A stretch of DNA of 57,116 bases, the filler included, from Sphacelaria rigidula (Eukaryota): assembly GCA_964200075.2 (NCBI GenBank). It is 8 parts of 8 records of this genome, joined end to end, with 100 filler letters (N's around TTAATTAATTAA, not from the genome) between each part and the next. Parts side by side here need not be neighbours in the genome. Positions count along the whole stretch, not along the records: positions 21,459 to 28,510 come from CAXNAA020016746.1; 7 more parts are not named here. One strand, given 5' to 3'. The translations under genes and the position numbers were made by a program. This document shows positions 4,563-42,808 of the stretch, piece after piece. Position 1 is the stretch's first letter. Every line of letters starts with the position of its first letter. The notes beneath the pieces are model-generated. The model saw only the letters and a program-made list of their open reading frames with translations. It was not told the DNA's origin and made no database searches.

Positions 4563-5164
4563 CAGAGGCGGTCACCACTTAAGAATACCTTATTTTGAGC
4601 GAGGCTCAGTTCTTGTTGGCTGCCCCAACCCGAGCACAAGTTCTTTTTCTCCATGTTCTTATTTCGTCGCCCCATCCTTGTCCAAAATCCGTGTTCTTGT
4701 TCTTATTTCAGCACCGATTGCTTAACTGGTGTGCAACAGTCACTATGCACAAGTTCTTATTTGCCAAGATATTTTTTTGTCGTGCCATCCGTGTCCAAAA
4801 GCGATGCTCTTGTCCGTATTTCAACACTGATTGCTCCAATGGTGTGCTGCAGCAGTCAGCAGTCAGTACTACGGCACTTTGGTGGCACTCGACTGCACTC
4901 GGCGGACATGAGAACACGGGTGCTGCTGTTTGGCGCAAGAAAACACCCCTCCATGGGGCAACTATCAACCTTCTTGGTCGAAAAGCGTGACGTTGCGGGT
5001 TCTTGTTCTTCTATGTAGCTGCAGCGGTACACCTCATGTGCGGGTTCTTGTTCTTAACCCCAGGTCCAATTTGAGCACGTGTTCTTATGAGCAAGTTCTT
5101 AATATTTCAAATTTTTGAGGCTCAAATTCTTAAGTGCCGTATTCTTAAGTGGTGACCGCCTCTG
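4563..5164. mobile_element. MITE, Tc1/mariner-like (602 bp)
   Basis: Perfect 26-bp TIR CAGAGGCGGTCACCACTTAAGAATAC at both ends; TA at 4561-4562 and 5165-5166; no coding capacity. Confidence 0.9.
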
Positions 5165-6470: not shown

Positions 6471-6726
6471 GAGTGATGCTACGGTAGGGGTGCACAAATA
6501 TTTTCCGAGGTTAGAATTGTTGGGAGCCCGTGATCTCATCCAAACGCGGCTTATAAAAATATGCGAGAGTACGCCAGGATTACTATTTCAATATGCTGGG
6601 AATATCCCGACTGAATTTGTAAAGGGGGATGCCCTGGCCCATATTCTTGTGCATCTAGAACCGTTAGGAACCTTTGGACCAGACAAGATTTCGGGCAAAA
6701 AGTGCACCCCTACTGTAGCATTGCTT
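6471..6726. mobile_element. MITE family S1 (256 bp), Sola2-like termini
   Basis: TIR GAGTGATGCTACGGTAGGGGTGCAC / GTGCACCCCTACTGTAGCATTGCTT; 4-bp TSD CTCA (6467-6470, 6727-6730); homologous to 21681-21937. Confidence 0.85.
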
Positions 6727-7053: not shown

Positions 7054-7153
7054 NNNNNNNNNNNNNNNNNNNNNNNNNNNNNNNNNNNNNNNNNNNNTTA
7101 ATTAATTAANNNNNNNNNNNNNNNNNNNNNNNNNNNNNNNNNNNNNNNNNNNN
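7054..7153. other. Artificial contig spacer N44-TTAATTAATTAA-N44
   Basis: Six-frame stop linker between N runs; the same linker recurs at 14207, 21359, 28511, 35663, 42815 and 49966. Confidence 0.98.
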
Positions 7154-7163
7154 GGGGGTCCGC

Positions 7164-7209
7164 CCCTACAAAGCCGGGACGGAGCACGCCGGGTTCTCGC
7201 CGGACCAGG
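7164..7209 (-). mobile_element. Fragment of C-tract retroposon (short form)
   Basis: CCCTACAAAGCCGGGACGGAGCACGCCGGGTTCTCGCCGGACCAGG, identical to 37040-37085. Confidence 0.85.
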
Positions 7210-9721
7210 CTAGCTAGTACAGGGGGCGTTTTATTTTTATTTCGGCCCAAGGCAAATCGATCGAATGCCCCTACAGCATGAACCGTCGAAACCAACTATT
7301 CACTTCCACTAACGTAATAGTGATCGGCAAACACGCAGTTGCACGTGGCACAGTGGCGCGTGCGCTACCCTGTTCCAAGGCAGGGTGAACACTCTGCAGT
7401 AAGACGGTAACGGTAGGCTGCATGGCAAAATGAGAACGCAGCTTCGGCTAAACCTATGCGTAGTCAGTCATCCAACGAAGCGCGTCACCATAGCACTTAC
7501 GTGGATGTGAACAAGCCGGGACAGGACCGAAGAGCAACTACAAAAAATCGCTCAGCAGCTACCAGCAGTGTACCAACGAAGGGACAGATATGTACCATCA
7601 ATGCGTGAAGCGGGGACAACGCACGGCAGAGTCAACTGTTGTGCAATGCAACTAAACCCAGTATAACCTAACACCTTAGACAGTCAGCATAACACGGGGG
7701 CGCCTCACTAAATACAAGAAAAACACGCAGACATAAAACCCGACTTGCTGACTACGGTGCGGCTTCAGTAGACGAACACAACGCCAAGCAACACGAGTAA
7801 GACTTTACCAACCAGGCAGAAGAACGTCCGTTTCGACGCCAATTGTCATACTGATGGGGTACGTAATGGATTGGCTGGGGTCTCTCAGTATGAGTGCCAG
7901 GGGATACTATAGTTCCAGCTCACCAAGTTTTTAACGTGCGCACACTCATACAGACCTTGGCAATCCATCAAGCACACATCACAGTATAAACATTTCTGGT
8001 TGGAGACTCAGATGTTGATAGTATCATATTATATCTACAAGCAGCTCTCTACTTCAGTACAGCTGCGGCGCAGTCATAGAAGCAGAGCATAGTGATGGTG
8101 CCAGAGTAGCAGGAGTAACTAGGCCAGCAAGCTAGGCAGGTCAGCAAGTGCCAACGGTGGGGCCAGCGGATTCTAGCCGCGCTCAACCCCCAATAATGAC
8201 AAAAACAAACGCGGAAACAACGCGTCACGGAACCCAGGGTTTACGAGCAGACCCGCAAATCGTGATACTTGCAACGCCGCTGAGCTTCATCACAGCCTCC
8301 CCTATCTCAGCATGACTCGAATGCAAAGTAGAAGCTGTACTTTAGAGCCAGGGACGTACGAACTGCCCGCTGACGGAAATGAGCTGTTCACCGCCTTGGC
8401 ACATCTGTGTACTGCCTCCAACAGCGTGAAGGTGAATTCCCTCGCCCTTGCAACTTCCTGACAGCATGAGATGGAGACTGCGAACCAGTGTGCGATACAA
8501 TTTCGTACAACCAATAGACGGTTTGAGTCTGCTGAACGGAGAGTCAACAGAGTCCAAGGTACACCATGCCGTGGCCCATGGCAGGCGCTTTCTTCAACTT
8601 CATGATATTAGAGGCTGTCGCATTCTTCCAAGAGAGTGACATTATCGAAAATGCCAAAGAAACGCCTATCGTGTGACGCCATTGCACGTGCTCGCTCCAT
8701 GAGGCGAGCAGCAGGCAATTAGCGCCAGGACTTCGCTTCCTCAGCTTCTCACACGAGAGAAACGCGACCTCTCGTCCCTTCGCTGCGGGTGTGTAAGCCA
8801 CTCAATCCCTCGTAGCGTAGCCCGGCTGTAGCATTATTGGTGTTAACTTGGTGAAAATGTATGATTTTTGAAACAACGATACGTGACAACAAGAAACACA
8901 AAATGTTATCATTTGCTGATACACATAACTGTAGCGCAGCGTCGGTGTTCTATTTCCCTGCAGGGCGCTGACCCAGCAGTTGATCAAGCGTCAGAAACGT
9001 TTGTACTCGACACAGCATACTATATCTCCTACCGTAAGAAAATAGCATATATTTACTCATGACACTCAGTATTCTGTACCCTCTCCTCCTCCCTTTGCTG
9101 TGGAAACTTGTACACCATGAACGGACGGCCTTTACTTCACCGGTTCCACCTTGTTGCAGGTACTGAAACTGGTGCCACATCCTCAACAACTGCCTCTACA
9201 TCTTCACTAAATCCCAGCAGTCAACACCACCTCGTGAGAGGTTCTCCCGATTGATCCAAGTCACAGACAAAAACCACTTCATATTGCCGGGGAGCACGTG
9301 CAGCCGCATATCCCTCTTCCGCCCGAAACCTCGCACTTTCGATTGTCTAACTATCTCTTGCTGACGGCGAATATCTCCATGATGTCAGCGCTCCGGCTCG
9401 TCTCCTTGAGGACAGTTACAATCTTCGATTTATCTTTAAATGTCCGCGTCACACATTCGGTCACGGAACGACAGGTCCGGCAAAGTCGATGGCAGGTGTG
9501 CTGACATCGAGGGCACGGGACCCAATACCGTGGCATTCATTTGCGCACTCTTGTCACCTGAAATATATATGAGATGGACACTGTGCTGCTCTCTCAAACA
9601 AACGTGCCACCAAGCGAGACAGATATGGAATACCACGTAGGTAGGCCGACGATAGTATACCCTCACCACCAGCCTCCACTTATATTAACAGTACCTCAAT
9701 CATCACCCCCCGCCTACCGAC

Positions 9722-9790
9722 TGCTCCGTCTCGAAAGGGATGCGGGGTCAATGGTCAGACGACTAAGGCAAGCAACAAATGAGCACGCCG
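9722..9790 (+). mobile_element. 5'-truncated LINE 3' end
   Basis: TGCTCCGTCTCGAAAGGGATGCGGGGTCAATGGTCAGACGACTAAGGCAAGCAACAAATGAGCACGCC; C-rich sequence on both sides. Confidence 0.8.
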
Positions 9791-10057
9791 TAGATCCTCC
9801 CCCACCCGACCCCGCGCCGCCCCCACCCCAGGCCAAGCNNNNNNNNNNCCCCTCCCACCCGCTCCGTCTAGAAAGGGGCGGGGGGGCCAAGGCAAAACAA
9901 CAAAAGAAAAAAAAAAAAGAGTCCCCCCCCCCCCCCCCCCCCCGCCTACCCACGACAAGATTGTATACGTCAAAAGCGGGTACGAGGGCAAATCTGGACA
10001 CCCGTTGTTGACATGATTCGTGCTCACCCCGTTCACGTCAAGACCGTCCTAGGGTGA

Positions 10058-11338
10058 TCAATGCCCCGTCGAAAAACGGATTGATTCCATGATGAAATCC
10101 TCATACCCGGGGAAGTACTTGTTCACAAGCTCCTCGAAGCACTCTCGCTCGGTAGCATCCACCACCACATCGGCACGAAGTGTACCTTTGCTCATAGTCT
10201 CTGGGGTTGCTGTGATCGCCTCATCGCGTCCTTCGCCACTTTGAGCACCAGCCGATGATGTGCGTTTTTTCGAACGCAGCACCGCGAGTACCTTAGCGAA
10301 ACATGCGGGGTCGCAGTCCAGCTGCCGTCGTCCCTGTGCATCCACGGCGCTCCTGCTTGTCTGCCATCTTTTACTGAACATGGCAGCGAGAGCAGAATCG
10401 GGACACGCCTGAAGAGTGGACCACAGCGTTGACATGGGCGTTCCACGAACGATGAGCTCCACGACTACGTCAGTTTCACCCATGAATCTTGGACCGTAGA
10501 GTTCTGTCATTGTCTGCACCGCCTCGTCAAGCCTAGCATTGATCTGTGCCACCTTAACTCTGGCACGCTGTAGTGATTCTCGTTCGCGACGGACGCACTC
10601 GACAAGAAAGGCTTCACTGCTATCCACGTCGCCATCCCCAACGGACGAATACTTGGTCTTGATGTCAATGGGGGTGGCATACGATATTGCTTGGTGCTGT
10701 GTGGATTTCGCGCCTCCACACGTTTCCACAACGAACACCTCTACGTCCACGACAGCCCTTTCGTTCAGACGGTTATACGCTTCAAGTGACTGTATCGGCA
10801 CCTCGTATGTGCTGTCGTCGGCGGCTTTGCAAATGACTGCAGATGTGTTGCAACCGTCTCCATTGGTGGTCAGCGATACTTTGAGTTCATTATTGCCAAA
10901 CGTTGGCCCGGAGTTCTTGTCACAGAATACTGCCCTAGGCCGGGCGTCCGTGTGCCACACCCCCTTGTTTATCCCCCACTTTGTCGCGTGTGCATGGCTC
11001 GCCGTACGATGTCCTGTGTCGTCCCGTAGCATAAAGATAAACGCTGCTGCAGAGTCTTTGTATGAGTGTTCCCCCGACCACGAAACATCCGAGAATCCCC
11101 CCACAATGCTCTCCTTCGCGGACGAGATTATATTTCTAATCCTCACCAGTGTGATCGTAGGCCCAACATTATCACATTTGGAGTGGAAACGTGCCGTACT
11201 GAATCCGTCCCGAGATGCTCGATACAGTAGTCGTAGCTCTCGAGGCTCCTCCGGACACCCATCCCTAAGTAGCCGATAGAAACTAGCACGGTCCCCGGGG
11301 CCCAGCACAGTACTTGCTCCCAGCAACGTAGAAACAGC
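10058..11338 (-). CDS. Terminal exon of a TLDc + coiled-coil + KCTD-type BTB/POZ protein (5'-partial)
   Basis: Uninterrupted frame of ~425 codons; TLDc motifs LRLLYRASRDGFSTARFHSKCDNVGPTITLV, IVGGF...W, AFIF, GPTFG..EL, VDVEVF; BTB motif VVELIVRGTPMSTLWSTLQACPDSALAAMFS...DAQGRRQLDCDPACFAKVLAVLR; no in-frame ATG upstream before the stop at 11384-11386; candidate acceptor TTCAG| at 11339-11343. Confidence 0.9.
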   Translation of the reverse strand, partial: AVSTLLGASTVLGPGDRASFYRLLRDGCPEEPRELRLLYRASRDGFSTARFHSKCDNVGPTITLVRIRNIISSAKESIVGGFSDVSWSGEHSYKDSAAAFIFMLRDDTGHRTASHAHATKWGINKGVWHTDARPRAVFCDKNSGPTFGNNELKVSLTTNGDGCNTSAVICKAADDSTYEVPIQSLEAYNRLNERAVVDVEVFVVETCGGAKSTQHQAISYATPIDIKTKYSSVGDGDVDSSEAFLVECVRRERESLQRARVKVAQINARLDEAVQTMTELYGPRFMGETDVVVELIVRGTPMSTLWSTLQACPDSALAAMFSKRWQTSRSAVDAQGRRQLDCDPACFAKVLAVLRSKKRTSSAGAQSGEGRDEAITATPETMSKGTLRADVVVDATERECFEELVNKYFPGYEDFIMESIRFSTGH

Positions 11339-14143: not shown

Positions 14144-14205
14144 GGGGGTGTACTCATGATCATGCATGCCATAGTCATAAGACCATGGACCTCGCATCCC
14201 TACAA
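14144..14205 (-). mobile_element. C-tract retroposon 3' end at contig end
   Basis: GGGGGTGTACTCATGATCATGCATGCCATAGTCATAAGACCATGGACCTCGCATCCCTACAA. Confidence 0.85.
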
Positions 14206-14206
14206 T

Positions 14207-14306
14207 NNNNNNNNNNNNNNNNNNNNNNNNNNNNNNNNNNNNNNNNNNNNTTAATTAATTAANNNNNNNNNNNNNNNNNNNNNNNNNNNNNNNNNNNNNN
14301 NNNNNN
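14207..14306. other. Artificial contig spacer
   Basis: N44-TTAATTAATTAA-N44. Confidence 0.98.
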
Positions 14307-15200: not shown

Positions 15201-16233
15201 CGTGACACCAACACCAACGTGACACAGAAAACGTATGAAAACGCAGCGCAATTTTTGTAAGAGCATGCAGCACCAAGCCTGCCACGCGGACCTGCCTGCC
15301 CTCCGTTTGAAAGGAAGACTCATAACCAAAGTCTTTTTTCCGCACTATGACGACGATTGAACGCTCTCCGAATATACCATTGAAGCACACATAATATACT
15401 TCCCCATTGAGTTCCTTGGCCCGGTTGTCTTACGGCATGTCGAGGTTGCACGACGGTTTCGGAAACGCAGTGTTCATGGATGCGATGGTTACGAACGTTC
15501 AGAGAGTTCAACTTTAGGGCCGGTTGTTTATAGAAGTAGGCGACCATCTCCGGTGACGATCTCCAAAGGAGTAATCCGATACTCCACGATACCCACAGAA
15601 GAAGGGAGGAATGCGGAGGGCTTCACAGAGAAGATAGCATTGTACTGTACTGCGCTGTACTGTACTGATTGTACTGTGTTGAAAGGTGCACTTCTGCGAC
15701 CCGTGTAATCGATGACCGTTCTCGAAAAATTGAAAAATATTTTCTCGAAAGCACACGTCTAGAACGTAAACAGTCGCATCGTCCGTCTAGAAGGCAGTTC
15801 ACTGACGTTTCTGGAACGTGCCGTGTAGAGCACTTGAAAAATGAGTGCAAAACCCAGATGACCTAAACGCGGTTCAGAGAGTTCAACTTGAGAGCCGGTT
15901 GTTCATAGAAAGAGGCGCCCATCTCCAGTGACGATCTCCAAATAAGTAAAATCCGATACTCCACGATACGCACATAAGAAGGGAGGAATGCGGGCTTCAT
16001 AGAGAAGATAACATTGTACTGTACTGTGCTGTACTGTACTGATTGTACTGTGTTGTACGGTGCACTTCGGCTTTGTCTATTTACACAAACAGCAGCCACC
16101 GCATGATGGGTCAGTTGTATTTGTATGGGAGAACTATTTGCTTCAAAAATGAATCCCCACCGCAGCCCAAGCACGTTTTTTGGGACTGAAGGCAGGAAGG
16201 GATGGTGGTGTCGGAGAGTTTTGTGTCGTCTAA

Positions 16234-17657
16234 GGCCGTGTCTCATCAAATATTTTCCGACTCGAAAACATGCGGTCGAATCGAACTGATCGTTACTAAG
16301 CCGAATCTCATACGCCCACGGTATTTATATTCCTAGATGGCTTCAAGTCCATTTTATAATTACTTGCGCGCGACGGGCAGGGTCAAAAACAGAAAAGCTT
16401 AGCTTTTTCGAGCGAAAAGAGCGGTGGAATGAACGAAGCGGCACGTAACTCCCATGTTGCAGACAACCGTGCCAGATGCCAGATACCAGGTACTAGATAC
16501 TACCCTTTCGCAGAGGTACGCAAAACCCAAATGGTTCATTCGCAGCTAGCTACGTTCCCAACCCTGCGGCATAGATCACGAACTCAGCACAGGGATATAT
16601 ACTGCAGCAGTGACAGGAAACCGACACTACCACACTTTTAGCGTGTGTTTCTTGTTGGCAATAACTTGGGCATCTAATTATGTGGAAGGGTCCACCAACG
16701 GAGTTGCGTGCCGGGGTGGGCGATCGAATTACCAACGCGCTCATGGGCAGCAGAGGCGGTGAAAAAATGCAAGTGGTTCAAATCTGCTTTGCATCCTCCC
16801 GTACACAGAGAGTCAGAAAGCTGTGCTGTCTGTCAAATCTGCTGTATGTCGCGTTGCCCACTTCTTTTCCACCTCGCGGCTGCATGCTGCGCGAAACGCA
16901 CAAACTATTTTCACAACACAACAACAACAGTAGTAAAGGCCGCCACTGTTGTTGTACAGTCTGTATGTTTGTACTGTACTGTATATAGGTAGAGAAGTAC
17001 CTGTGTTGCAGACTATCCTGCCAGATACTACCCTTTCACAGAGGTACGCAAAACCCAAATGGTTCATTCGCAGCTAGCTACATACCCAACCCTGCGGCAT
17101 AGGTCACGATCTCAGCACAGGGATATATACCGCAGCGATGATAGGAAACCGACGCCACCACACTTTTGGCATGATGTGTTTCTTCTTGTTGGCAAAATTT
17201 TGGGCATCTAATTTTGTAGCAGGGTCCACCGGCGGAGTTGCGTGTCGGGGCGGGCGATCAAATTGCCAACGCACTCATGGGCAGTGGAGGCGGTGAAAAA
17301 GTGCACGTGGTTCAAATCCGCTTCGCATCCTCCTGTACGCGGAGAGTCAGAGAGCTGTGCTGTCTGTCGAATCTGCTGCGGGCCGCGTCACCCGCTTCTT
17401 TATCACATCGCGCCCGCATGCTGTGCGAAACACACACCACCTGGACAGTACAGGCCGCCACTGTTGTTGTATAGTCTGTACTGTCTGTACTGTACTGTGT
17501 GTTGAATAGAAGTAAAGAACTACCGCTTCACGAATTCGCTCCGCCTTTTCGAGTCGAAGCGTGCAATTTCGCTCGGACCCAAACATAGCAAAGCGAAGTG
17601 AATCAATTCCGCCGCACGAACTCGTTCGAGTCGGAGAAAATTTGATAAGACACCGCC
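16234..17657. mobile_element. PIF/Harbinger-like non-autonomous element (1424 bp) with internal ~540-bp tandem duplication
   Basis: ~33-bp imperfect TIR GGCCGTGTCTCATCAAATATTTTCCGACTCGAA / TTCGAGTCGGAGAAAATTTGATAAGACACCGCC; 3-bp flanks TAA/TGA; empty site GTC-TGA-GCC at ~55807-55815; internal repeat 16455-17003 vs 17004-17515. Confidence 0.85.
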
Positions 17658-18645: not shown

Positions 18646-19545
18646 GTACAGACTGGCACCCCCAGGGGGGGTCATCTGTGTTGCATTGTCACAGTTTTGA
18701 CGTGAAAGTAAATGATGAACAGACCGTACCGGCGATGCAATGCAGCAGGGACGTGTGGGTGTCATGGGTGTAGATGGCCTTCTACGCTTCTTTTCCCAAC
18801 CGACCGGGCGGCACATTCGCTTCTTCGCCGATCGACTGGGCGGATCATTCCCATCTCGTTGGCTTGTGCGATTTTCCGTCAGGAAGATCCATGACACTCT
18901 CTGCAAGAAATTCCTATACATTTTGTCCTCGATTAGCATCTTTGACAGTGACGCTCTTTTTGAGTACTGGTGTCTCCGGTGTTCATCGAGTATGCGTGTA
19001 AAGAATCAAATTTCCGTTTTTCAAAATCAAAGTGTCAGCGCCGCCATCAGAACTCAGCGTGTTGCCTATTACGCGCACACTTTGAGGCGCTGACAGCTTG
19101 GGTCGAAGGTCGAATCTCGCCCTCGTCGAAGGGGAACGGTGATGGGAAAACATTGCACTATCTCATCGAGCTTTCACAAATGAAAAACGTCGCAGGGTGA
19201 CGTGGAGCTGAAGGGGTTTGTGAAGTGTACTGTTTTCAGAGTCGGGTGAATTACCCCGCTTCGTTTTCCGAGATAACAGGTAATCTTACTTACCCATATT
19301 TGGTCTATCTTTGCATGTGGCCTTGACCACACAAGGTCATCAAATATTGCACGCACAATCGGTCATCACGATTTGCATCCGCCAGCACTGCACAAGAATA
19401 CACACCACACCACACCACACCACACCACGTTACCTCTCGTCACAGGCATGGTGAACAGCCAACACACTTTACAGTCAGCGCAAACATTGTAATGGACGAA
19501 TGACGAATACCGGTCGGAAAACACATGAGTTAACGAGTAATACCC

Positions 19546-20100: not shown

Positions 20101-20861
20101 TCAACGAAAACGCTTTCTGCGCACGCGAGGAGCACACGGGACTGTCAGCCCCACTAAACTTCCGATTCTCGTTGTACACACTCAAATCAAGTACCATAAA
20201 CCATGAACATTTTTAGCCCAACGCCGGGAGACTTCCGAGAAAAAGGGGCCGCTGCGTTACACGGTAAAACTCGACCGGAGAAAGTAACTACCGCTGACTT
20301 ACGCGAAAATGAGGGTCACTCGAGTGAAGGTGAGTTGATTAGTCCGACGTGCACGGCAAATCTCAAGATGAAAGTCAGATAGTAAACAATGGCCGCTGCT
20401 TCACCCCAGTCACGCAAAAAAAAGGGGGCGCGCGGTATAGTTAGTTGATTCTATAAGCATGCCTGTGATATCCTCAGTTACAGTTGTCCGCCTTCACAAC
20501 ATTTCATCATGTCTGGAGTGCCCTTGTAGGCACAGCCTCCTAGACCCGCAGGGTATCATCCCCGTCCTCCCGGTCATTATCCAGAATCCCCTCAAAACCT
20601 TCCAGAATCCCCGTCCCCCCGGTCATTATCCAGATCATCACTGCCTACTCAACGTAACGGCGGAATTTCGTCACAGCACTCAGCACCACACCCCCCTCGC
20701 GACCGCAGCACATGATCTCCTTCCTCCCCCCCTCCCCCCCCTTTCATTTCCTTTCCCTTCATTTATGTTCTGCTTCCCATCTTTTCTCTCCTACTTCCAG
20801 CTGAGCTCGATTTTATGTCGGCTCATTCCCTTGTTATCCCACATGTTCTTCCCCCTTTTTC

Positions 20862-20935
20862 TCGATAGGGATGCGTGGTCAATGGTCAAACGACTAAGGC
20901 AAGCAAGAAATGAGTACGCCCCCCCCCCCCCCCCT
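20862..20935 (+). mobile_element. 5'-truncated LINE 3' end
   Basis: TCGATAGGGATGCGTGGTCAATGGTCAAACGACTAAGGCAAGCAAGAAATGAGTACG followed by a long C run. Confidence 0.8.
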
Positions 20936-21173
20936 TTTTTTCTGGAGTTTTTCCTTCAGTAAATTCTTCCGTCCACGTGACAACATTACTCATCGGTGTC
21001 TTCGAGCACGAACAGTACACCCCAGGTCATCATCTGTGCGACAAACCGCGGCCGAATCCGCACCAGTTTTAGTCAATTCAGCGACAATCGACCGATCAAA
21101 TGATCAATACATGCACACAGAACATGGAGATATTCATCCCGTCGGATGAAGTACAACATGCAGAGCACAGTCA

Positions 21174-21233: not shown

Positions 21234-21236
<3 letters not shown>

Positions 21237-21343
21237 GGTCCGGCGAAAACCTGGCGTGCTCCGTCCCGGCTTTGTAGGGATGCGAGGTCAATGGTCATAT
21301 GACTATTGCATGCAAGGTCATGAGAATCGCTCCTCCCCCCCCT
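21234..21343 (+). mobile_element. C-tract retroposon, short (~100 bp) form
   Basis: CCTGGTCCGGCG...GGGATGCGAGGTCAATGGTCATATGACTATTGCATGCAAGGTCATGAG followed by a C run. Confidence 0.85.
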
Positions 21344-21358: not shown

Positions 21359-21458
21359 NNNNNNNNNNNNNNNNNNNNNNNNNNNNNNNNNNNNNNNNNN
21401 NNTTAATTAATTAANNNNNNNNNNNNNNNNNNNNNNNNNNNNNNNNNNNNNNNNNNNN
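21359..21458. other. Artificial contig spacer
   Basis: N44-TTAATTAATTAA-N44. Confidence 0.98.
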
Positions 21459-21530
21459 CCCCGCAAAAAAACCGGGAGCCGGCAGGCGGGGTCCCCCCCC
21501 CCCTCCCCCCCCCCCCCCCCCCCCCAGAAC

Positions 21531-22117
21531 CATACAAGGAGAAACGCGACGTGCTAGAGGGCGAGATGCGGGCCGTGAACGAAGGTAGCATGAAATCGTT
21601 TGAGGCATAAGACAGTTGGGAGAAAACGATTGCTATACTAGGAGGAGATGGATGGTGGCCCGGACGGCGAAACAGGACGGGAGTGATGCTACGGTAGGGG
21701 TGCAGAAATATTTTCCGAGGATAGAATTGTTAGGAGCCCTTTATCTCATGCAAAACACAACCTATGAAAATATGTGAAAGTACGCCAGGATTACTTTTCC
21801 CATGTGCTAGAGATATCCCGAATGAATTTGCAAGCGGGGATGCCCTGATCCATATTTTCGTGCATCTAGAATCGTGAGGAGCCCCTGAACTAGACATAAT
21901 TTCGCGAAAAATGTGCACCCCTACCGTAGCATTGCTCACGGGGAAAATATATGCAAACGGTGTTTGTGTAATGTATGAAAGAAACGTACTGAGCGCCAGA
22001 AGTTGGAGGTGGCTCTCCTGGGAGTAGAAACGATGCTCCGTCTCGGAAGGGATGCGTGGTCAACGGTCAAACGACTAAGGCAAGCAATGACTGAGTACGC
22101 CCCCCCCCTACCCCCCC
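21531..22117 (+). mobile_element. LINE ORF2 C-terminus and 3' end, interrupted by MITE S1
   Basis: Decayed translation YKEKRDVLEGEMRAVNEGSMKSFEA*DSWEKTIAILG..WWP..AKQDG/ICKRCLCNV*KKRTER...APSRKGCVVNGQTTKASND*, then GTACG + C run; long C run immediately upstream (21493-21525). Confidence 0.75.
21681..21937. mobile_element. MITE family S1 (257 bp), Sola2-like termini
   Basis: GAGTGATGCTACGGTAGGGGTGCA...TGCACCCCTACCGTAGCATTGCTC; 4-bp TSD ACGG (21677-21680, 21938-21941). Confidence 0.9.
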
Positions 22118-28510: not shown

Positions 28511-28610
28511 NNNNNNNNNNNNNNNNNNNNNNNNNNNNNNNNNNNNNNNNNNNNTTAATTAATTAANNNNNNNNNNNNNNNNNNNNNNNNNNNNNNNNNN
28601 NNNNNNNNNN
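28511..28610. other. Artificial contig spacer
   Basis: N44-TTAATTAATTAA-N44. Confidence 0.98.
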
Positions 28611-31600
28611 GGGTGTGTTGTGGGGGGGTGGGTGTTGTGGGGGGGGGGTGTTTGGGGGCGGGGGGGGGGGGGGGGGGGGATACAAGGCAGTTGACTGTCG
28701 TTGTTTTCATTTTCATTTTCATATTATTTTTCGTTTTTTTTTTCGCTCGATTGTATGTTTTGTTGCGGGCAAGCAGTTGGCATCTCCCAGGCTCTTGAAC
28801 TTGTCTGCCATATACTCAATGCGGTACAGTATATATATATATATATATAAATACACAACACAGTGCTGAGGTGCTTGTTGTCAGTGTCGATATTTGTTGT
28901 TTTCATGTATTTTGTTTGTTTTCTTCCATGTGTCTAGCCCTACCGTATACATACATGCATATACACTTTCAAGGGTGAGGAACACACGTTTTTATTCCTT
29001 TTTTGCTTTTTTTACTCTTTGCTCTTGACATTGCGCCCCCGCTTCCCCCATCCCTGAAAGCAGCGCATATCGTTCCAGGCCAACTCGCTCCTCTATTTGA
29101 TTTTTTTCGTCTTGGGGCGGGTGAGGAAGGGGAGTCGCACCCTGTTGTAACTTCGGGGGGTAAGTTGTGCGTTGGGCTTCGCGTTCTGCGGCTTAATTGT
29201 GAAAGGTGCGGCAGTCAAGCCCTTCAAAGGCGTGCCGTTGGAATTCCTCGCACATTTACTTCATTAGGTGGCACCCTGTTTATGTCGGAGTTGGGTTCCT
29301 CGGCGCCCCGCCCGGATGATACATATCTCGTAATCTATATTGTATATGCTTGCTTGAGGTGGGGAAAAAGAAGGCAGGGGAGAGGGCACGTGCTGAACGA
29401 TGGGGCCGTCGTAGTAAGGGAGGGTGTTGGCGGAGGGGGGGGGGAGGGGAGGCTGCGAAGGGAAGGAGGCAACCTGTACACCTTGTTTTCGACGCTTGCG
29501 CGCGATTTTTGTCGAGCGAGATTAACGCGGCTGGCGAGTTGTGTGTATGTGTGTGTGAGGGAGTGTGTGTGTGAGGGAGTGTGTGTCTTTCAGTCATGTA
29601 CAACCGCCAGTTGGAAGAATTTGGGGCGGGGGTTGGGGGGGGGAATGGGATAAAGGGTGAAGGTGAGGTTGTTGGAGTGGGAGTGGGGTTGATTTATCAG
29701 CACCCTACATATCGGCTCCGTCCCGATAACTTATCTCTGTCTGCCTGCGTACCTCCCCCCTTCTACATATACATTTCTCGCTACATGTACGTGTCGTCTT
29801 GGTATGGGCTGTGTGTGTACTTTAGTTGTTGAAGTCGATGTGTGCGTGTACGGCGGTGAGTTGCTCTGTCTCGTCTTGATTCATATAGCATGTTTCTTTT
29901 TGTTAATTTTGTTATCGCTTTATGGTGGAAGAAATGGGAAAATAGGTTATATATATAGCGTTAGAAAATGATTTTCATGAATTAGGACATGACTTTTTTT
30001 TTCTTCTTTTTTTTCTCTTCCACTTCAAAGTGGAAGGGAAGAAGGTATATAATAATGTGTTTGAAAAAACAGACGAGGTCTTGATTTGGTTGTGAGTGAA
30101 AGTGGAGGGTTATATGAGAGTATTGTGCGGGGGGGAAAAAAAAATGGTGACGATTCTTGAGTCGAGAGTGTGTGAGCAGCAGTATAGTAGTTTAGCTGGT
30201 GCGACAAATGACGGTTTTTCTCATCAATCGGGTATTGATATGAAAGCAGCGTTGGAGAAAATGTGTAGCGTTGTTGAGAAAATAAGGCTCTTGGCTGCGT
30301 CGGGTGCAAGTGCAGGCCCCACATGGGGGGACATGTTTCATGTGACGAAGAAAAAACAAGACAAAGTGCGGTAAATACTGCTGACAAGAACGAAAGGAAG
30401 AAGAAAATAGGATAGGGACAATATCTTGATGCTGTTGTACGGTGTACTTTTTGTCGCATCTTTTTTCGATGAACGCTCAACGGTGACTGGCTGGTGGCCG
30501 CAGCTTTGTCCGAGTGTAGGCCATGCGGTCCACCGTCTGCGTGTTGCTCGCTCAGGTTGGTGGGGTTGAAAATAGAGGCCGCCTCTAGCTGTTGGCGAAA
30601 ATCTGCGGATGTCTTTTTTCGAACAAATTAACCGTAACACTAAGCCCAACAAACCTAACCCCGACCCAATGCCCACGAGAAGCCTGGGGCAAGGTGGGTG
30701 CAAAGGTTCTCCTAGGCCCAGTGTGCGTTGGCAGGCCTCAAAATCGACGCCGCTGACACCGGTTTGGACAACATACGTTCTGGACGAGCTGGGTCCACTG
30801 CTCACCTGCCCCAAACCACAATTTTTCTCAGAAATGTCTTCGCTCTAGAATCAAGAAGTCATCTTGTCAACTATAGATTTCCGACCAAAGCTAAAGCTCT
30901 ACTGTGGAAATGCCCTCCCCGCGGAGATTGCTGTCACTTGTCTTGTTGCGGTGGATGATACAGATACAGGCAGGGAAAGTACAGAATGGGCACGGAGTTT
31001 TTCTTGTATTGGCCACGAACCCCCCCCCCCCCCCGAAATTGTCATTAGCCAAAATTCCTCGGTCCACAGTTGAAAGTACCATATCCAAGTATCTGCGATC
31101 GTGACAGCTCTCAACACAAACCACACATACCTCCAATACTAGTGAAACATATGTTTTAGCTCTGATTCATGGATGCTTAGGATTAGGGTATAGTCAGAGA
31201 GTACCGGTACTTTGTGTCTCGACACTCCAGCTACTCAGGGTCATCCCTATATATCGCTTTTTCGCCCCAGAAACTCTGGACTATTCAGCATTTTCGGCAG
31301 TCGATAGATTCCCTACAGCAGTGGGCGGTCTACCTACTAATCTTGTGGCATTTTGTGATTTTTTCGGGCTCTTTCCGCTTGCCACCGCTTATCACATCGG
31401 GGATCTGAAGACGTTTGTATCCGCTCCATATTCCAAGAATAAAAAATCATCTGTACTCAATATTGCGTGACTCACGGGCTGACCGGTCATCGGGGGTCCT
31501 GCCACGTTTCAGCCCAGATTCTTACTCTTCTGTAGTTTCGGCCGATCGAGCCCGTCTCAATCATGTTTGTGAAGAAATATATTGTTATGTTTTTTAGAAA

Positions 31601-35662: not shown

Positions 35663-35762
35663 NNNNNNNNNNNNNNNNNNNNNNNNNNNNNNNNNNNNNN
35701 NNNNNNTTAATTAATTAANNNNNNNNNNNNNNNNNNNNNNNNNNNNNNNNNNNNNNNNNNNN
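35663..35762. other. Artificial contig spacer
   Basis: N44-TTAATTAATTAA-N44. Confidence 0.98.
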
Positions 35763-35767
35763 CTTGA

Positions 35768-35910
35768 AGGGTGAGCTGCATCCTGCTAAGCTTGTTCGGC
35801 CCGAAGCCTACTGATGACCTTGCACTTGGATGACAGCCTCCAATGAGTTGCTTTATTCTGTGGTGTCGCCACTTTCAGAGACAGCCACAGCTTTTACACT
35901 GCCTCGTGGG
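35768..35910 (-). mobile_element. Internal fragment of C-tract retroposon long form
   Basis: AAGGGTGAGCTGCATCCTGCT...CAGAGACAGCC matches 37348-37490 and 52458-52600. Confidence 0.8.
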
Positions 35911-36989
35911 TGGGTGGGGGGATACACGAAAACTAGGGGCTCACAGATGTGCCGGACGACCTGACTACTCGCGGTGCGTTTGAATCTGGGTGAAAACGGT
36001 TTCAACCGGCATGAATGAGTATGTCTCATTGGTTAACAAGCGTGTTCGAAGAAACGTTGCTGCTTTCAAGGACGATTTCAAGTGGAATTTTGTCGAAGTG
36101 ATGGCCCGAAATACCCCCCCCCTCCCTATCGTAGCATCTCTCATAGACCGTCGGGCAGGCCAACATGGGTAGGCACTGGGCACTGCACGGGTAACACGTA
36201 TATATTTCACAACGTAACCGTAAGCCCTCCAGCGACAACGATATGTACTGTGCAGCTGACGCATCTCGTCAATCCTGGAGGGTTCATCTACAGATTGCAC
36301 CGCGTTCATGCACGGGTGGTCACTGTGCATATGACGAGTGCACTTTTTTTTGTTTCGCCCTTGAAGGAAGGACACAACCTCACCCAACACTTAACCCGCG
36401 AGTGGGTTTGTTTGCCGATTATCCGAGGGCTCGGTTAGACCACCGTGTGACGGTCATGTGGGGTAGGCGCCTCTACAGTAGCGTTCGGAAATCTTTGCTC
36501 AAGGCAGTCTGGGAGGTAAACACTGAGAAAGCCCGGTTGACTTTGCGCCGCGCATGGCCCGCCCTACTCTTATGAGTTTCAGCCCTTGACGAGTACGTTA
36601 TGACACCCAGTGGCCCCGCGTGTACTGCGTATACTAGGAAATTTTCCCTCGATCTGAAGAGAAAGTTTACGATCAGCTTCGAACGAATCGGAGAAATAAA
36701 GTGAAAGGGATGAGAACATTAGGTCGTGGAACACAATTACTGGCGACTAGAAAACTGGTGAAGGTCCAGCGAGCAGAGTTCACAAACCGGTCGACAAAGC
36801 TATCCCGCGGGCATTACTGGCGTGGCAACCCAACATACGTGAGAGACATGCTGCGAGGTAGACGTGAAAAAGGCTGTGCAGAAATATCCTCACCGCTATT
36901 CAGCGAAAACTGTTACCTCTACAAATTCCCCCCTCATCTCACAACACACGAAGAGGGTCATAAATGACCTAGGAGGGAGGGAGGGGGGG

Positions 36990-37763
36990 GTGTACTCATG
37001 ATCATGCATGCCATAGTCATAAGACCACTGACCTCGCATCCCTACAAAGCCGGGACGGAGCACGCCGGGTTCTCGCCGGACCAGGGGTGTACTCATGATC
37101 TTGCATGTCGTAGTCATGTGACCATTGATCTCGCATCCTCACAAAGCCACGACGGAGCACGCTGGATTTTCCTCTTGATGAGGGAGAGGGGGGGAAAGGC
37201 TACTCATGATCTTGCATCCCATAGTCACATGACCATCGACCTCGAATCCCTACGAAGCTGGGATGGATCACACCGGGTTTTCGCCGGACCAGGCTCGCAA
37301 TCGTTCACCAAGCGCGAAGCGCCGTGGTGTGTTCGGCGAGTCGCATAAAGGGTGAGCTGCATCCTGCTGAGACTGTTCCGTCCGAAGCGTACTGATTACC
37401 TCGCATTTGGATGACAGCCTGCAATGTGTTGCTTCATTGTCTGGTGTTGCCACTTCCAGAGACAGCCTCGGCTTATGCTCTGCCTGCCTCATGGGGTCTC
37501 ACCATGTCAACACTACGTAGTAGGATCATCTCCTTTGCGTGGAGCTGAGGTTTTCCCACCCCGCACAATATGACCTACCTCGACCACCATCATGATTACC
37601 GGGGGGAAAACGCAAGTGCGCAAAACAAAACGGTTAACCTGGTTGCCTAGCTTACGCAATGATTGCGTATTTTACAGCGCCATCGCCAACCGACGCCAAC
37701 CTCATAGGGGGTTCGTCCCTGCAAAGCCGGGACGGAGCACGCCGGGTTTTCGCCGGACCAGGC
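36990..37763 (-). mobile_element. Head-to-tail cluster of C-tract retroposons (two short copies, one internally deleted long copy, one fragment)
   Basis: Copies at 36990-37085, 37086-~37170, ~37200-37712 and 37717-37763, all in the same orientation and each adjoining a G run on the + strand. Confidence 0.85.
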
Positions 37764-38305
37764 TAACCAACGCTGTCGTCGAGCCTCCCCTCTCTTCCCC
37801 CCCCCCCGTCTCTCTCCAAGTCGAAAAGGCTTTGTTCTACATGGAGAGAAGGAGAGAAGAAGAAGGAAAAGAGGCGGCGGATTTTATTTCCCCTGAGGCA
37901 GCGAGCGGGACAAGACGGTGTGCGATCATCACAATCATCATCGCCTGTTAGCGACAATCGACCTCGATCCCCGCCTCACCGTGCACCTACCGCCGCGACA
38001 GAATCAATCAATGATGGGGGGGGGTGCTCATCCGTTGCTTGCCTTAGTCATTTGATCGTTACATACATACGGAAAATCTCGCGCAAGAGTCTGTCCAGTA
38101 CTCGCCATCCATTGACACAAGTCAGGATTGGCATCATTGTCTTCACAGCGCATTACTGGTTACTTTTTTGCGCTACGAGACTGGCAGAGAGCCGTGCCCA
38201 TGTACCAGGGCACACCATATTGCGTTCTATCAGCGTGGGTAAGGTGTGCCCCCTGGAGTAGTTCGAGATCCACCGTCCGTCGACTTTGGGGTCAGCGTCA
38301 CGGTC

Positions 38306-38380
38306 GGGGATAGGGTTACGGTCAGAGTTACGGTTAGAGTTTCGGTTACGGTCACGGTTACGGTTAGGGATAGGATTAGT
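38306..38380 (+). repeat. Degenerate telomere-like hexamer array (GGTTAG/GGTTAC)
   Basis: GGGATAGGGTTACGGTCAGAGTTACGGTTAGAG...GGTTAGGGATAGGATTAG. Confidence 0.7.
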
Positions 38381-39068
38381 TGGTTGAGCTAACTAACTCA
38401 TCACGATGACCAGCATGTGAGGATCAAAACGCTCCACGATCGATGATAAAACAGAGCCCGCGTACAAATTCATGGCGAGGTAGATTATTTGAGTTTCCCC
38501 TCTCACAAAAAATAATTGAGCTAGGTTCAACTCAGCTCAGCTCGGGAGGCTTCGGAGACAACCGTTCACCTCACTTTCACAATAACATCAACAACAACAT
38601 AATAACAACACAACAACTAGAGCAGCATCAATTATTGATGTCTTCCACAAAACAAGAAAGCGCCGGCGAAACAAATAAACCAGACTAACCTACCTACTTA
38701 CCTGCCTACCTACGTACCTAGCTACCAGCCGACCACGCGCACAGTCAGTGCATGCCCACATGTACATCATACACCTTCCTTTCCCCACCGCGTTACGTCA
38801 CCAACCGTGGTCCTCGACACAAAAACGATAACAGGATCGATCGCCCGCGCAAGGAAACTTGGTCCAAACGACTGCTATCCCCTTGGAGAAAATACTACCA
38901 GAAACCTCATCAGGCAAGCAGTGGTAGTGCTGTTGACAAAGGGGGAGATGCCGCGGGATCGCAAGTTGTGCCAGGCAGCAACACGGGAAACGTTGAACCT
39001 CGAGGGTCGCTGGAGGGGCGAGTCCAACGGAACAGAAGTACGTCAGGCCACTCTGCTCAGGCACGTGC

Positions 39069-39071
<3 letters not shown>

Positions 39072-39125
<54 letters not shown>

Positions 39126-39146
39126 TGTGTTTGTGTGTTTGTGTGT
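39072..39146 (+). repeat. (GT)n microsatellite
   Basis: Direct observation. Confidence 0.95.
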
Positions 39147-39493
39147 TTTCAGCCGCTTGCGCGACCGATAGTGGCTACCTCGTCATGATCGCCATTTTTA
39201 ATTGGAGATTGATGGCGATTCAACCTTTAAATATATATATATATATATACACGTATCTGAGCGGTTAAAACGGGTGAAGACGCAACGTTGTTTCGAGTGC
39301 GATCCTTTATATATGTATATGTGTGGTGTTGACGCATGATGCTGAATACAGGACACACTGTGTCAGTAGTTGTCTTTGTCAACTTTGTGTGAAAAAAAAT
39401 CAGAAAATGAAGAAGCGAAAATTATGTGCCTCTTCAGTTTCGCTGGGGATTTTTACAGGGGCCGGGCGAATGAATGATCCGTCTGGAAATTCC

Positions 39494-39718
39494 TTGATTT
39501 TAGTGTAATTGATTCATACTGTACGAATCAATCCTTCGGCTTTGTTGCCAGCGTTGCAACCAGAGGTACGCGCAGCCCGGGCACATGGAATGTCGCAAAA
39601 ATTGCGTGGAGACCTTTTTGACCAGTGACTATTTTCTTTTTTCCTTTTCGAGCACAATCAGGCCTGAAAATGGTGGATTTTGCCGATTCGGACCAACGAT
39701 GGTTCGTCCGGACCGTGG
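39494..39718 (+). repeat. Unclassified dispersed repeat
   Basis: Collinear with 51344-51571 (TTGATTTTAGT...GTACGAATCAATCCTT...GCAAAAATTGCGTGGAGACCTTT...TTCGTCCG). Confidence 0.8.
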
Positions 39719-40481
39719 ATGTTTCACAGTACCTTAACCAACTGCTGCACTTTCTCTTTCCCTTACTCCCAACTCTTCCCCTTTGCTCGGGACGAGTCCG
39801 TGGTCTAGTGGTCCCAAGGATTCAATCCATCTTTCCCCCGGCGCACGCCTTACATTTTGGTGTCGAGGATTGGATCATGACCAGCTTTCCCGCACCCCGT
39901 CGACTGTCGTCAAACAAACTCAGCCAAGGAGACTACCATTACTGTTGCTGCGAAGAACCTCGTCGCCGGGTTGCGTTTCTAGCATTTGATTGAGTGTGGG
40001 CTTTCACCCTATTTTCACTAGATGGTGAAGAAGTAAAATGGTACCGGTTGCACAAACGGACATAAAACGCTGAAGGTGTCCATGCGTGGAATTGGCATCT
40101 TTTTTTCGCTTGAAAGGTTACTTGTGACCTAGACTGCCAATAACCCTGGCGGTCAAGGGGCTCACATTCGGAAGAGCTAGTCGGCGGACCCCTTGACTGT
40201 CGCACCTATACTGATGGCTGATACTGATACTGATACTGATACTGATGCCTGTCGCAACTACACTGAACCCCAAGGATCCAACCTTGATTACACAATAGAC
40301 GTACCCGAGATTAAAAAGAAAAACGGAAACACTCCCTGAAGAAAAAGTGAAGGAAGTCGAAGAGTAGAACAGACGAGGTAGACTCAGAAAAGAATAACAA
40401 AAGAGAAGGAAAGAAAAAACAAGGCAAGCAAAGGGAAAACAAGTAGAAATGACCGGCCTCTTCAACATGACTTCGGTGGGA

Positions 40482-40744
40482 GATACTTTCTACGATAGCC
40501 CCCCCTCCCCCCCCCCCGAAAAAAAATGGCTGGTTTGGGGGAGGCAGCATTTACGCGTAAATTAAAATGAAAAAAGCCAAGGACAACCAGCAACCCAGAA
40601 TTCCCACGCTTGGCTTCATTGTCGCCAATGTCGCTCATATGAGGCTCTTCATGCAGCCTGAAACAAAACATCAGGCGCTGTATGACCATTTTCTTCGTGG
40701 CACTTTTGGGCTGTTTTTGGAGGGGGGCTATCGTAGAAAGTGTC
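40482..40744. mobile_element. MITE family M (~260 bp)
   Basis: TIR GATACTTTCTACGATAGCCCCCC / GGGGGGCTATCGTAGAAAGTGTC; other copies at 19546-19818, 53480-53600 and 56735-56820; TSD not resolved. Confidence 0.75.
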
Positions 40745-41984
40745 AAAAAAGGTCGTGCTCTAAAACCACACTCAATCCCAGTCGCGGGAACAAAAAACTC
40801 GTGGCAACAGGTTGTGGCTGGTCTATTTCAACCTCAATGTGTTGGGTATCAAGCTTCCATCCATGAACCCTGCGGAAGAGAGGCACCAAACCGCTACATG
40901 CATACATCGGGAGGAAATAGCACACACGTAGAGAAAGAGAGAAAGAGATGCGAGACAGAGAGAGAGAGACTGCAGGGGTAATGAGACCCAAAGGATACAG
41001 TACGGTAGAGCAGGTACAAACGCAACACCAGAAAGCCCCGCAAGACTACCGACCAAGGGCAAAATCATAAACGTGTAGGACAAGACAGGGGTACATCAGT
41101 TTCCGTATTTGCCCAATTTCTCGCATACGTCCCTAGCCGGGTATAAAGTGGGCCATTTCCTCGGTCGTTTCCGTCGTGGATTGCTCGCGAGCTGTTGCTG
41201 TTGTTGCGCTAGCAAAGACAATTCTCTGATTGGCGGATATCGACGCAGCCGCCCCTCGTTTGTGGCGGCGGTCCGGTTCTCGTTTGTCTTCGCGTCGCCA
41301 CGTGTCCTCGAGCTGCTCCGCAGACCGCACAGACGTACATGGAAAATTGATTCGCTACCTTTCCGCGCCCCTAACGCTGCGGCGTCTCATTCGTCGTTGT
41401 GCACGTGCGTGTGGGTCGGTGTTTTGGCCGTGCCGTTAGCCCCCATCCCTTCTTGCAGGCGAGTCCTTAGCCCCGAGAGGTCAACCCATTTCTGTCCCGA
41501 TGCTTGCGTGGTAGTTAACCATCGAACACTGATTTGACCGACAATTTGCGCATCCCATTGACGATCATCGGATCATTAGTTGCTACTCACGTTTTCCGGC
41601 GTCACGACGTCAACCAGATTATCTTGATACAGCAGAGGCCTTTTTTATGACCGTATATATCCTGGCATTCGAATCACCAAGTCTGGCGGAACTGACGGTT
41701 GGCACACTATTTTGATGACCGGTGCTCGGCATGTGAATACCTTGGGGAATGGGAAGCGGATGTGTATCTGTCTGAAAGTGAAGAAATAGGGCTCGTGCAT
41801 GACAATCATGACAGCTAAACCGCAACCATATCGGACGACGTTGTCCCCCTTTTCAACGGGTATGTGCGTGTGTGCTTCTGAGGGTGCCATATTCCAGCGT
41901 GTGTATGGCAGGTACATCGATCGATGGGAAAAAATGCAGCGCACGTAGTACCAGAATAGTAGCAATAGTGCTACCATGTCACTA

Positions 41985-42135
<151 letters not shown>

Positions 42136-42726: not shown

Positions 42727-42808
42727 GGGGGGGGTGTACTCATGATCATGCATGCCATAGTCATAAGACCATTGACCTCGCGATCGTAAGAGGACGGGAC
42801 GGAGCACG
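42727..42808 (-). mobile_element. C-tract retroposon 3' end at contig end
   Basis: G run + TGTACTCATGATCATGCATGCCATAGTCATAAGACCATTGACCTCGC. Confidence 0.85.

Follow-up and report, generated by a model that had tools for sequence, protein, structure and literature searches.

Does a run of cytosines beside a retroposon mark the site at which the element inserted, or did the element bring the run with it? The question is raised by positions 21493-22117 of a 57,116-nt stretch of DNA from the brown alga Sphacelaria rigidula (assembly GCA_964200075.2; the whole stretch is called the window), where the 3' part of a long interspersed nuclear element (LINE), here family A, lies between two C-rich tracts. 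An earlier inspection without database searches (the sequence-only reading) had proposed that this LINE and a second, non-coding family, here family B, form a retroposition system targeted to poly(C)/poly(G) tracts, with the C runs being duplicated target sites rather than a tail. Our analysis indicates that the C run is probably both the tail of the element and the first part of a target-site duplication (TSD).

The window consists of eight unlinked pieces of 7,051-7,053 nt each, joined by seven N44-TTAATTAATTAA-N44 linkers at a spacing of 7,152-3 nt (7054-7153, 14207-14306, 21359-21458, 28511-28610, 35663-35762, 42815-42914 and 49966-50065). Distances and neighbourhoods across linkers have no meaning. 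Because the pieces are unlinked, repeats that touch piece ends (sampling cuts at 1, 7154, 14206, 35765, 42814, 42915 and 49965) were cut by sampling and not by biology. The C tract at 21493-21525 begins only 35 nt inside its piece.

A LINE and its non-coding partner

No reverse transcriptase (RT) is encoded in the window, and Pfam searches of 12 window open reading frames (ORFs) returned only a TLDc/BTB host gene. A 22-nt degenerate pattern taken from the family A end identified two metagenome contigs, L001 and L002, each with a single long intact ORF (1253 and 1426 codons, respectively, from stop to stop). The two proteins are 75% identical overall, with a mean column identity of 83%. Pfam matched them to Exo_endo_phos (6.7e-13 and 3.1e-11), Exo_endo_phos_2 and RVT_1 (1.1e-30 and 7.7e-33); the RT has FADD, and a CxCx8Hx4C (CCHC) knuckle lies C-terminal to RVT_1. 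No restriction-like endonuclease domain was found in either protein by Pfam. The nearest solved structures in the PDB are L1 ORF2p (3e-22) and, next, R2 proteins. Family A is a real LINE, a non-long-terminal-repeat retrotransposon with one endonuclease (EN)-RT-CCHC ORF. The Pfam domains and the nearness of L1 ORF2p place it in the apurinic endonuclease (APE) type and not the restriction-like type, a choice that the sequence-only reading had left open.

Among named proteins, those of Ectocarpus sp. CCAP 1310/34 come nearest to the ORF, at 59% identity (269 proteins at E<=1e-3 among 5,926 candidates), and in the table of the Ectocarpus transposable-element library (C)n ends are given for RTE-X families only (PMC12477816). 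Family A is therefore most likely related to the Ectocarpus RTE-X families. The set of features given for the Ec32 RTE-X elements recurs here: a single EN-RT ORF, a (C)n 3' end, a TSD rich in C and a partner of ~600 bp that has ~60 bp of 3' end in common with the LINE. ESM Atlas clusters, which were generic RVT_1 with one Tx1-named cluster at 0.95, were insufficient for clade assignment. A possible 8-nt TSD of the full-length L002 copy (CCTTATCA) was seen by eye and is too weak to use.

All six LINE 3'-end copies that had been picked out from the window match the 3' end of these intact-ORF contigs at 79-96% by BLASTN, and BLASTN added three further pieces. The window copies, 40-320 nt long, share one 3' terminus and are thus 5'-truncated. 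The copy at the flagged locus, A3, is made up as follows.

21493-21525, plus strand: C11-T-C21 tract immediately before the 5' truncation point; C run of a candidate target or TSD
21526-22117, plus strand: A3 as a whole, matching L002 (reverse complement) 4687-4839 and 4835-5006, split by an insertion (BLASTN matches 21527-21681 and 21938-22108)
21526-21681, plus strand: LINE fragment part 1, 86% to L002 (reverse complement) 4687-4839, beginning just past the CCHC knuckle codons
21682-21937, no strand: 256-nt insertion resembling a miniature inverted-repeat transposable element (MITE), with 20-27-nt terminal inverted repeats (TIRs) and a 5-nt duplication, ACGGG; foreign to the LINE
21938-22099, plus strand: LINE fragment part 2, with the ORF end, the TGA stop at 22092-22094 and the shared ~80-nt 3' domain to GAGTACG
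22100-22117, plus strand: tail C9-TA-C7

The remaining family A copies are given below.

9706-9956, plus strand: unit A1, with copy A1 at 9721-9792 (match 9722-9789), an N10 gap, a degenerate copy A1' at 9861-9922 (match 9861-9941) and a C21 tail at 9923-9943
20851-20945, plus strand: unit A2, with the copy at 20860-20918 (match 20860-20928) and a C16 tail (to 20934)
38016-38058, minus strand: A6, a short diverged LINE 3' copy (match 38016-38055) with a C9 tail; 5' junction without a C run
47766-47928, plus strand: unit A4, with the copy at 47781-47912 (match 47781-47921), a C9 tail and an N10 gap inside with CTCGGA on either side
49890-49965, minus strand: A5, a LINE 3' copy (match 49900-49965) cut by the piece end; tail C5-T-C4
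52184-52279, minus strand: weak LINE fragment without the 3' domain, beginning 14 nt past the tail of B8 (below)
57024-57116, plus strand: LINE RT-region fragment (…INDL…FADDF), cut by the window end

Two N10 gaps (9839-9848 and 47845-47854) lie within LINE 3' copies, and for annotation this means that family A and B repeats break assemblies. The sequence CTCGGA on either side of the second gap resembles an unmerged contig overlap, and the first gap is followed by a second copy (9861-9943), degenerate and rich in homopolymers, which is perhaps a low-quality duplicate of 9721-9792.

The copies of family B were found, by self-comparison and multiple alignment, where the sequence-only reading had placed them (at 1, 7154/7164, 14144, 21234, 35765, 36983-37764, 42727 and 52293-53072).

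1-167, plus strand: B1, body end, 3' module and C5-T-C8; cut by the piece start
7154-7226 (element to 7211), minus strand: B2, partner 5' end with half-module and internal C5; 5' flank of C5 and 10 nt; cut by the piece start
14144-14206, minus strand: B3, 3' module with tail C5; cut by the piece end
21234-21342, plus strand: B4, short module with C8 tail; (CA)n before it and no C run upstream
35765-35925 (element to 35903), minus strand: partner body fragment, cut by the piece start; C6 and 10 nt before the 5' truncation point
36983-37166, minus strand: head-to-tail short modules B6 (37088-37166) and B5 (36991-37085), with the joint ...GAGTACA-CCCC-TGG... and a single flanking repeat shared by the pair
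37188-37764, minus strand: B7, long copy of ~577 nt with 5' half-module, internal C5 (37711-37715), body, 3' module and C7 tail
42727-42814, minus strand: B9, 3' module with C8 tail; cut by the piece end
52293-53072, minus strand: B8, long copy with tail C6-T-C8, 5'-truncated a few nucleotides upstream of the internal C5 (53063-53067)

In its full form, family B is ~577 nt long. It opens with 48 nt that repeat half of its own 3' module; after these come an internal CCCCC, a body of ~430 nt, the 3' module itself (~110 nt) and the tail. A short ~110-nt form also exists. The sequence-only reading had taken the CCCCC at the far end of both long copies for a C-rich flank. It is instead internal to the partner (37711-37715 and 53063-53067), because the junction of half-module and C5 recurs in another piece (7154-7212, 93% over 59 nt) and the element continues to ~37764, as do the read matches.

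Family B has no long ORF; ARAGORN found no tRNA genes in the window, and Rfam e-value scans of both long copies gave no tRNA, 5S, 7SL or ribozyme match. A polymerase III (pol III) head derived from tRNA, 5S or 7SL, which defines a short interspersed nuclear element (SINE) in the strict sense, is thus absent from these scans. Two candidate origins were set aside. One was a Penelope-like element or hammerhead retrozyme, suggested by a partial copy that stands in tandem before the long partner; no ribozyme was matched in Rfam, and the autonomous element has APE and RT domains, not GIY-YIG. A complete 5S rRNA gene at 54103-54222 had suggested a 5S-derived head, and this gene is a standalone match ~1 kb from B8. 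The 5' regions of L002 and of the partner, suspected by eye to be alike, showed no significant similarity by BLASTN. Family B is a non-coding, non-autonomous partner of the LINE and is probably mobilised in trans by the LINE proteins.

The partner is very abundant. In sequencing run X1 of this organism, the module at 36943-37414 reached a summed contig depth of 5.0-5.7 million, compared with ~60-80 on neighbouring single-copy stretches; this depth, from 133,419 contigs, is not a copy number and shows only great abundance. A partner-module pattern had no loci in viral contigs, and its seven loci in bacterial genome contigs (L003-L009) were read as chance matches in GC-rich bacteria.

The common 3' domain and the C runs at element ends

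Families A and B are alike over their last ~80 nt, as seen in the self-comparison and in a multiple alignment of all ends. The common domain reads GTGCTCCGTC...GGGATGCG(T/A)GGTCAAYGGTCA-loop-GACTA(A/T)GGCA(A/T)GCA...ATGAGTAC(G/A), followed by the C run, and BLASTN aligns L001 and L002 with the partner modules at 78-82% over 51-69 nt. Every window copy that retains its 3' end closes in a C run, and poly(A) is found in neither family. The alignment of all ends thus bears out the terminal motif first described, TGAGTAC(G/A) with a C run in place of poly(A), and the ~80 aligned nucleotides bear out a LINE and non-coding partner with a common 3' end of the stringent type.

In the LINE this domain overlaps the ORF. 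The protein ends ...GCVVNGQ(T/M)TKASNK, and the stop codon is the TGA of AAATGAGTACG (context ...AAA TGA GTACG), after which come C8 in L001 or C10 in L002 and then unrelated sequence. As had been noticed in the truncated copies, the stop codon lies inside the terminal motif and almost no 3' untranslated region (UTR) exists: the intact ORFs leave five bases and the C run. Over the last 25 codons, L001 and L002 show no synonymous differences among 22 identical-residue codons, compared with 334 of 940 for the whole ORF. These synonymous counts support the view that the last ~25 codons may double as the ~80-nt 3' recognition domain, constrained as nucleic acid. The C-terminal motif (G/R)CVVNG is retained in relatives down to ~40% identity, which suggests that the overlap of ORF end and recognition domain may be clade-wide. 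In relatives at this distance (P0008-P0023), (G/R)CVVNG..AMAA forms the very end of the protein, behind a stretch that is variable and of low complexity, and some of them fall in clusters of 500-700 members on megabase contigs. RNAalifold, applied to 10 ends, predicts an imperfect 14-pair hairpin, a plausible fold for the 3' end.

At the other end of the copies, we took all 15 5' junctions located within a piece and scored each for CCCCC in the 25 nt before it. Seven junctions were positive (A1, A2, A3, A4, the fragment at 52279, B2 and the fragment at 35903), compared with 2.7% of 112,296 background positions (binomial p ~6e-8). At the 52279 fragment the upstream run is the tail of a neighbouring copy. 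The same holds for B6, whose C7 run begins 27 nt upstream, just beyond the 25-nt test window. The junctions are therefore not all independent. At A1, A2, A4, B2 and 35903, the upstream run is only C5-6, no element end precedes it, and between it and the junction lie 4-10 nt of ordinary sequence. The C runs that the sequence-only reading had noticed at 5' junctions are thus real and enriched, but they are not universal, and of the proposed C/G-targeted system the preference stands while strict target specificity does not. What we observe is a C-run preference, not strict site specificity, in a small and partly old sample.

We then aligned the 5' and 3' flanks of the nine units with both ends inside a piece. 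Direct repeats starting with a C run, ~10-17 nt long, flank five of the nine.

A1 with its degenerate twin: CCCCCCGCCTACCGAC upstream (9706-9721); C21-GCCTACCCACGAC downstream (GCCTACCCACGAC at 9944-9956); the best TSD in the window
A2: CCCCCTTTT upstream; C16-TTTTTTT downstream
A4: CCCCCATCCTCCCT upstream; C9-TCTCCCT downstream
B6+B5 dimer: C7-TCTCCCTC upstream; C8-TCCCTC downstream
A3: C11-T-C21 upstream; C9-TA-C7 downstream

In four of these five, the 3' run is longer than the 5' run (21 compared with 6, 16 with 5, 9 with 5 and 8 with 7). A3 is the exception, with 9(+7) at the 3' side and 21(+11) at the 5' side. Furthermore, L001 and L002 carry their C8-C10 beside unrelated flanks. The longer 3' runs and these C8-C10 runs together indicate that the element brings its own C run. 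The claim of duplicated target sites rather than a tail is therefore supported in its first half, as C runs take part in the repeats of five of the nine units, and not in its second.

Contigs of four runs were aligned to 35763-42814, and loose-end consensus and joints were read off. Beyond the module 3' end (places 36979 and 42727), the plus-strand loose-end consensus shows at least 11-19 consecutive G's, equivalent to poly(C) in the element sense. Upstream of the module 5' start (places 37085 and 37764), a C run in the element sense was found in X1, X3 and X4, with an agreement of ~0.5. Head-to-tail joints from 37085 to 42727/42730 pass through a C run in 14, 4 and 14 contigs of X1, X3 and X4, respectively. 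Within the window itself, B6 and B5 are fused through only four C's within one flanking-repeat pair.

Recognised copy ends are touched by 14 of the 43 C/G runs of at least 7 nt in the window. Unattached long runs of 10-20 nt occur at 2881-2901, 28622-28679, 29435-29444, 31020-31034, 37797-37807, 44561-44574 and 49816-49826; decayed copies may have left the unattached runs as their tails, or these runs may belong to other families or be free targets. By a rough estimate, ~5 runs of this length would be expected in random 50% GC sequence, compared with the 43 counted in 56 kb.

Tail, target or both

The explanation that we favour, at a rough probability of 0.65, is that of a (C)n-ended APE LINE with a trans-copied partner, both inserting at C runs by C-priming, so that the C run is the element's tail as well as the first part of a 10-17-nt TSD (target C5-7). 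The LINE RNA would end in GTACG and an oligo(C) run in place of poly(A). Such a C tail cannot come from polyadenylation and so must be templated or made by slippage. By stringent-type recognition of the common 3' domain, the LINE machinery would also copy family B in trans. In terms of the sense strand, the first nick would probably be made at the 5' border of a C5-7 run, with the second nick following 10-17 nt downstream. In target-primed reverse transcription (TPRT), a primer strand ending in a G run would then pair with the oligo(C) end of the RNA. The resulting TSD would begin with the C run and, at the 3' junction, run together with the C tail of the element itself. A longer C run, in turn a good target, would remain after each insertion, and insertion into older tails, along with template jumping between RNAs, would give rise to head-to-tail arrays.

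Several observations weigh against this explanation. Eight of the 15 junctions have no C5 in the 25-nt test window (A1', A6, the RT fragment, B4, B5, B6, B7 and B8), and no flanking repeat was found in four of the nine units (A6, B4, B7 and B8). Four of the five repeats are low-complexity pyrimidine sequence. Only the A1 repeat is complex, and it spans the N10 gap and the degenerate second copy, possibly an assembly duplicate. In a cross-pair control, 2-9 of 72 mismatched flank pairs score as high as the true pairs, a weak control because many flanks share C runs. No contig of the four runs cleanly skips an element over 35763-42814, where contigs break at repeats; as no empty allele was seen, the pre-insertion target sequence is only inferred. 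The contig consensus cannot separate insertion into a C run from a tandem array made in one event. Furthermore, 29 of the 43 long C/G runs are not beside a recognised copy, only one of the 14 pairs of the predicted hairpin shows a compensatory change, and the named Ectocarpus relatives reach just 59% identity.

The alternative that survives best, though we consider it unlikely, is that the C run is a tail and nothing more: a templated (C)n tail, comparable to the microsatellites in which other stringent LINEs end, with no target preference, the upstream C runs being those of array neighbours or products of template jumping. Head-to-tail joints are indeed common, the B6-B5 fusion lies within one flanking repeat, and neighbouring tails supply the C runs at the 52279 fragment and at B6. 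The Ectocarpus table likewise notes of such elements 'can be present in tandem' (PMC12477816). What this account leaves unexplained are the five junctions (A1, A2, A4, B2 and the 35765 fragment) where C5-6 stands with no element 3' end before it and a 4-10-nt spacer after it. The spacer reappears past the 3' tail in A1, A2 and A4, the three of these units with the 3' side inside a piece, and five such hits in 15 junctions are far above the 2.7% background.

Less probable again is a strict poly(C)/poly(G) target, in which the RNA has no C tail and every terminal C run is duplicated target DNA. C runs do flank many copies on both sides, in the window and at the genome-wide loose ends, and at A3, the locus that raised the question, the 5' run (C11-T-C21) exceeds the 3' run (C9-TA-C7), both being interrupted. 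Yet the 3' run is the longer in four of the five TSD-bearing units, and more than half of the junctions lack C5. The TSDs of A1, A2, A4 and B6+B5 continue 4-10 nt past the C run into ordinary sequence, which leaves a target of only C5-C7. In addition, the Ectocarpus curators give '(C)n 3'' as a feature of the element (PMC12477816). Sequencing or assembly error at repeats, as the source of both the C/G homopolymers and the odd junctions, is very improbable: two N10 gaps do fall in LINE copies, one with CTCGGA on both sides and the other before a degenerate duplicate rich in G/A homopolymers, but four runs, drawn from two studies and at least three samples, gave contigs with the same C-run ends, which also occur in two independent metagenome contigs and in the curated library of another genus (PMC12477816).

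Within the favoured explanation of a combined tail and target, one further proposal is more tentative, and we rate it at somewhat under even odds: that the RTE-X lineage is truly homopolymer-directed, with a nick beside oligo(G), priming by oligo(C) RNA and a self-seeding loop. If so, the head-to-tail arrays, the surplus of C/G runs and the very high copy number of the partner would all find their explanation in this loop. This would be the first mechanistically characterised LINE primed by a G/C homopolymer, the counterpart of L1 poly(A)/oligo(T) priming. Were the G/C pairing model true, homopolymer-primed TPRT would have a second example, independent of the first, and C/G tracts in brown-algal genomes would have these elements as one of their origins.

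Known systems and other features of the window

Mammalian L1 and Alu have a poly(A) tail, a TTTT/AA nick site and A-started TSDs, and they insert into older A tails. The proposed system resembles them in that a homopolymer tail would pair with its complement on the nicked strand, TSDs start with the tail base and old tails would become targets; it differs in that recognition here is seemingly stringent, through the common 3' domain, and not relaxed. Microsatellite- and repeat-specific LINEs, among them Waldo, Mino, Kibi and Koshi of the R1 clade and also Dong and the Zepp arrays, insert with high specificity into telomeric repeats or into repeats of di- to tetranucleotides. Like these, families A and B occur at simple repeats that resemble their own 3' end and in tandem head-to-tail arrays. 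Unlike those LINEs, they would be directed to a short homopolymer, for which 7 of 15 junctions show a partial preference.

Stringent LINE/SINE pairs with a common 3' tail are exemplified by eel UnaL2/UnaSINE1, with (TGTAA)n (PMC3747384). In such pairs, the partner carries the LINE 3' domain, the 3' end is conserved and stem-loop-like, and a short terminal repeat replaces poly(A); families A and B resemble them in the common 3' domain, the terminal repeat and a predicted hairpin. In contrast, the repeat here is a single base (C), the putative recognition domain lies in the ORF and not in the 3' UTR, and the partner has no detectable pol III head.

The closest counterparts are the RTE-X elements of Ectocarpus, which are described examples of a kind for which the sequence-only reading, made without a search, knew of none. 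Supplementary file 1 of the Ectocarpus transposable-element library describes RTEX-1_Ec32 as 'single EN-RT ORF; (C)n 3'' with a 'C-rich' TSD, and RTEX-2_Ec32 as having '(C)n termini/TSD' (PMC12477816). Non-autonomous partners are recorded as well. RTEX-N1_Ec32 (607 bp) shares 60 bp of 3' end with RTEX-1/RTEX-2 at 83%, can be present in tandem, has a 5' region of unknown origin and is the most abundant family, and RTEX-N2_Ec32 (188 bp) shares ~100 bp of 3' end (PMC12477816). In the same table, RTE ends are (CAA)n and CRE ends (CA)n (PMC12477816). Common to both systems are a brown-algal host, a single EN-RT ORF in an element of ~5-6 kb, the (C)n 3' end, the C-rich TSD, and ~600-bp as well as short partners. 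The host alga is different, its TLDc/BTB gene being only 32-36% identical to the relatives in named brown algae, and the comparison is one with the descriptions in the library table (PMC12477816). A literature search on poly-C or C-rich retrotransposon tails and on RTEX/RTE-X target sites gave no description besides that library, with parenthesised spellings and Repbase Reports outside its coverage.

This kind of element is thus already on record for Ectocarpus, and what is new is its occurrence in another brown alga. There a (C)n-ended LINE/partner system, most likely of the RTE-X kind, is present at very high copy number, and intact ORFs are found in marine metagenome contigs. The Ectocarpus table consists of notes, with no analysis there of tail and target, of the overlap of ORF end and 3' domain, or of arrays (PMC12477816). 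To these notes the present analysis adds C5-7-started TSDs that run into ordinary sequence, usually with the longer run at the 3' side, a probable recognition domain overlapping the last 25 codons, and dimers that can sit in one TSD.

The insertion that splits A3 belongs to a MITE-like family of ~250 nt, with 20-27-nt TIRs (…GATGCTACGGTAGGGGTGCA…) and 5-nt duplications (ACGGG, CTCAG), which is also found at 6471-6725 and 42915-42978 (minus strand). Similar MITE termini (…CTACGATAG…) stand beside the C/G runs at 36114-36122, 40499-40517 and 56786-56802. Short repeats near the 5S gene lie at 54258-54317 and 54428-54489. Other features of the window are as follows.

10058-11326, minus strand: host ORF with TLDc and BTB_2; best named relatives brown-algal at 32-36% identity, and one other protein at 66%
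54103-54222, minus strand: complete 5S rRNA gene (Rfam RF00001, 67.9 bits)
15497-16226 with 55330-55801, 16495-16982 with 17023-17498, and 18647-18940 with 55945-56205: dispersed or tandem repeats, 74-90% identity
39469-39717 with 51320-51571, and 50774-50972 with 54314-54460 and 56828-57028: further such repeats, 74-90% identity
21173-21233: (CA)n microsatellite directly upstream of B4
39065-39150: (GT)n microsatellite
41965-42150: (CTG)n/(CTA)n microsatellite

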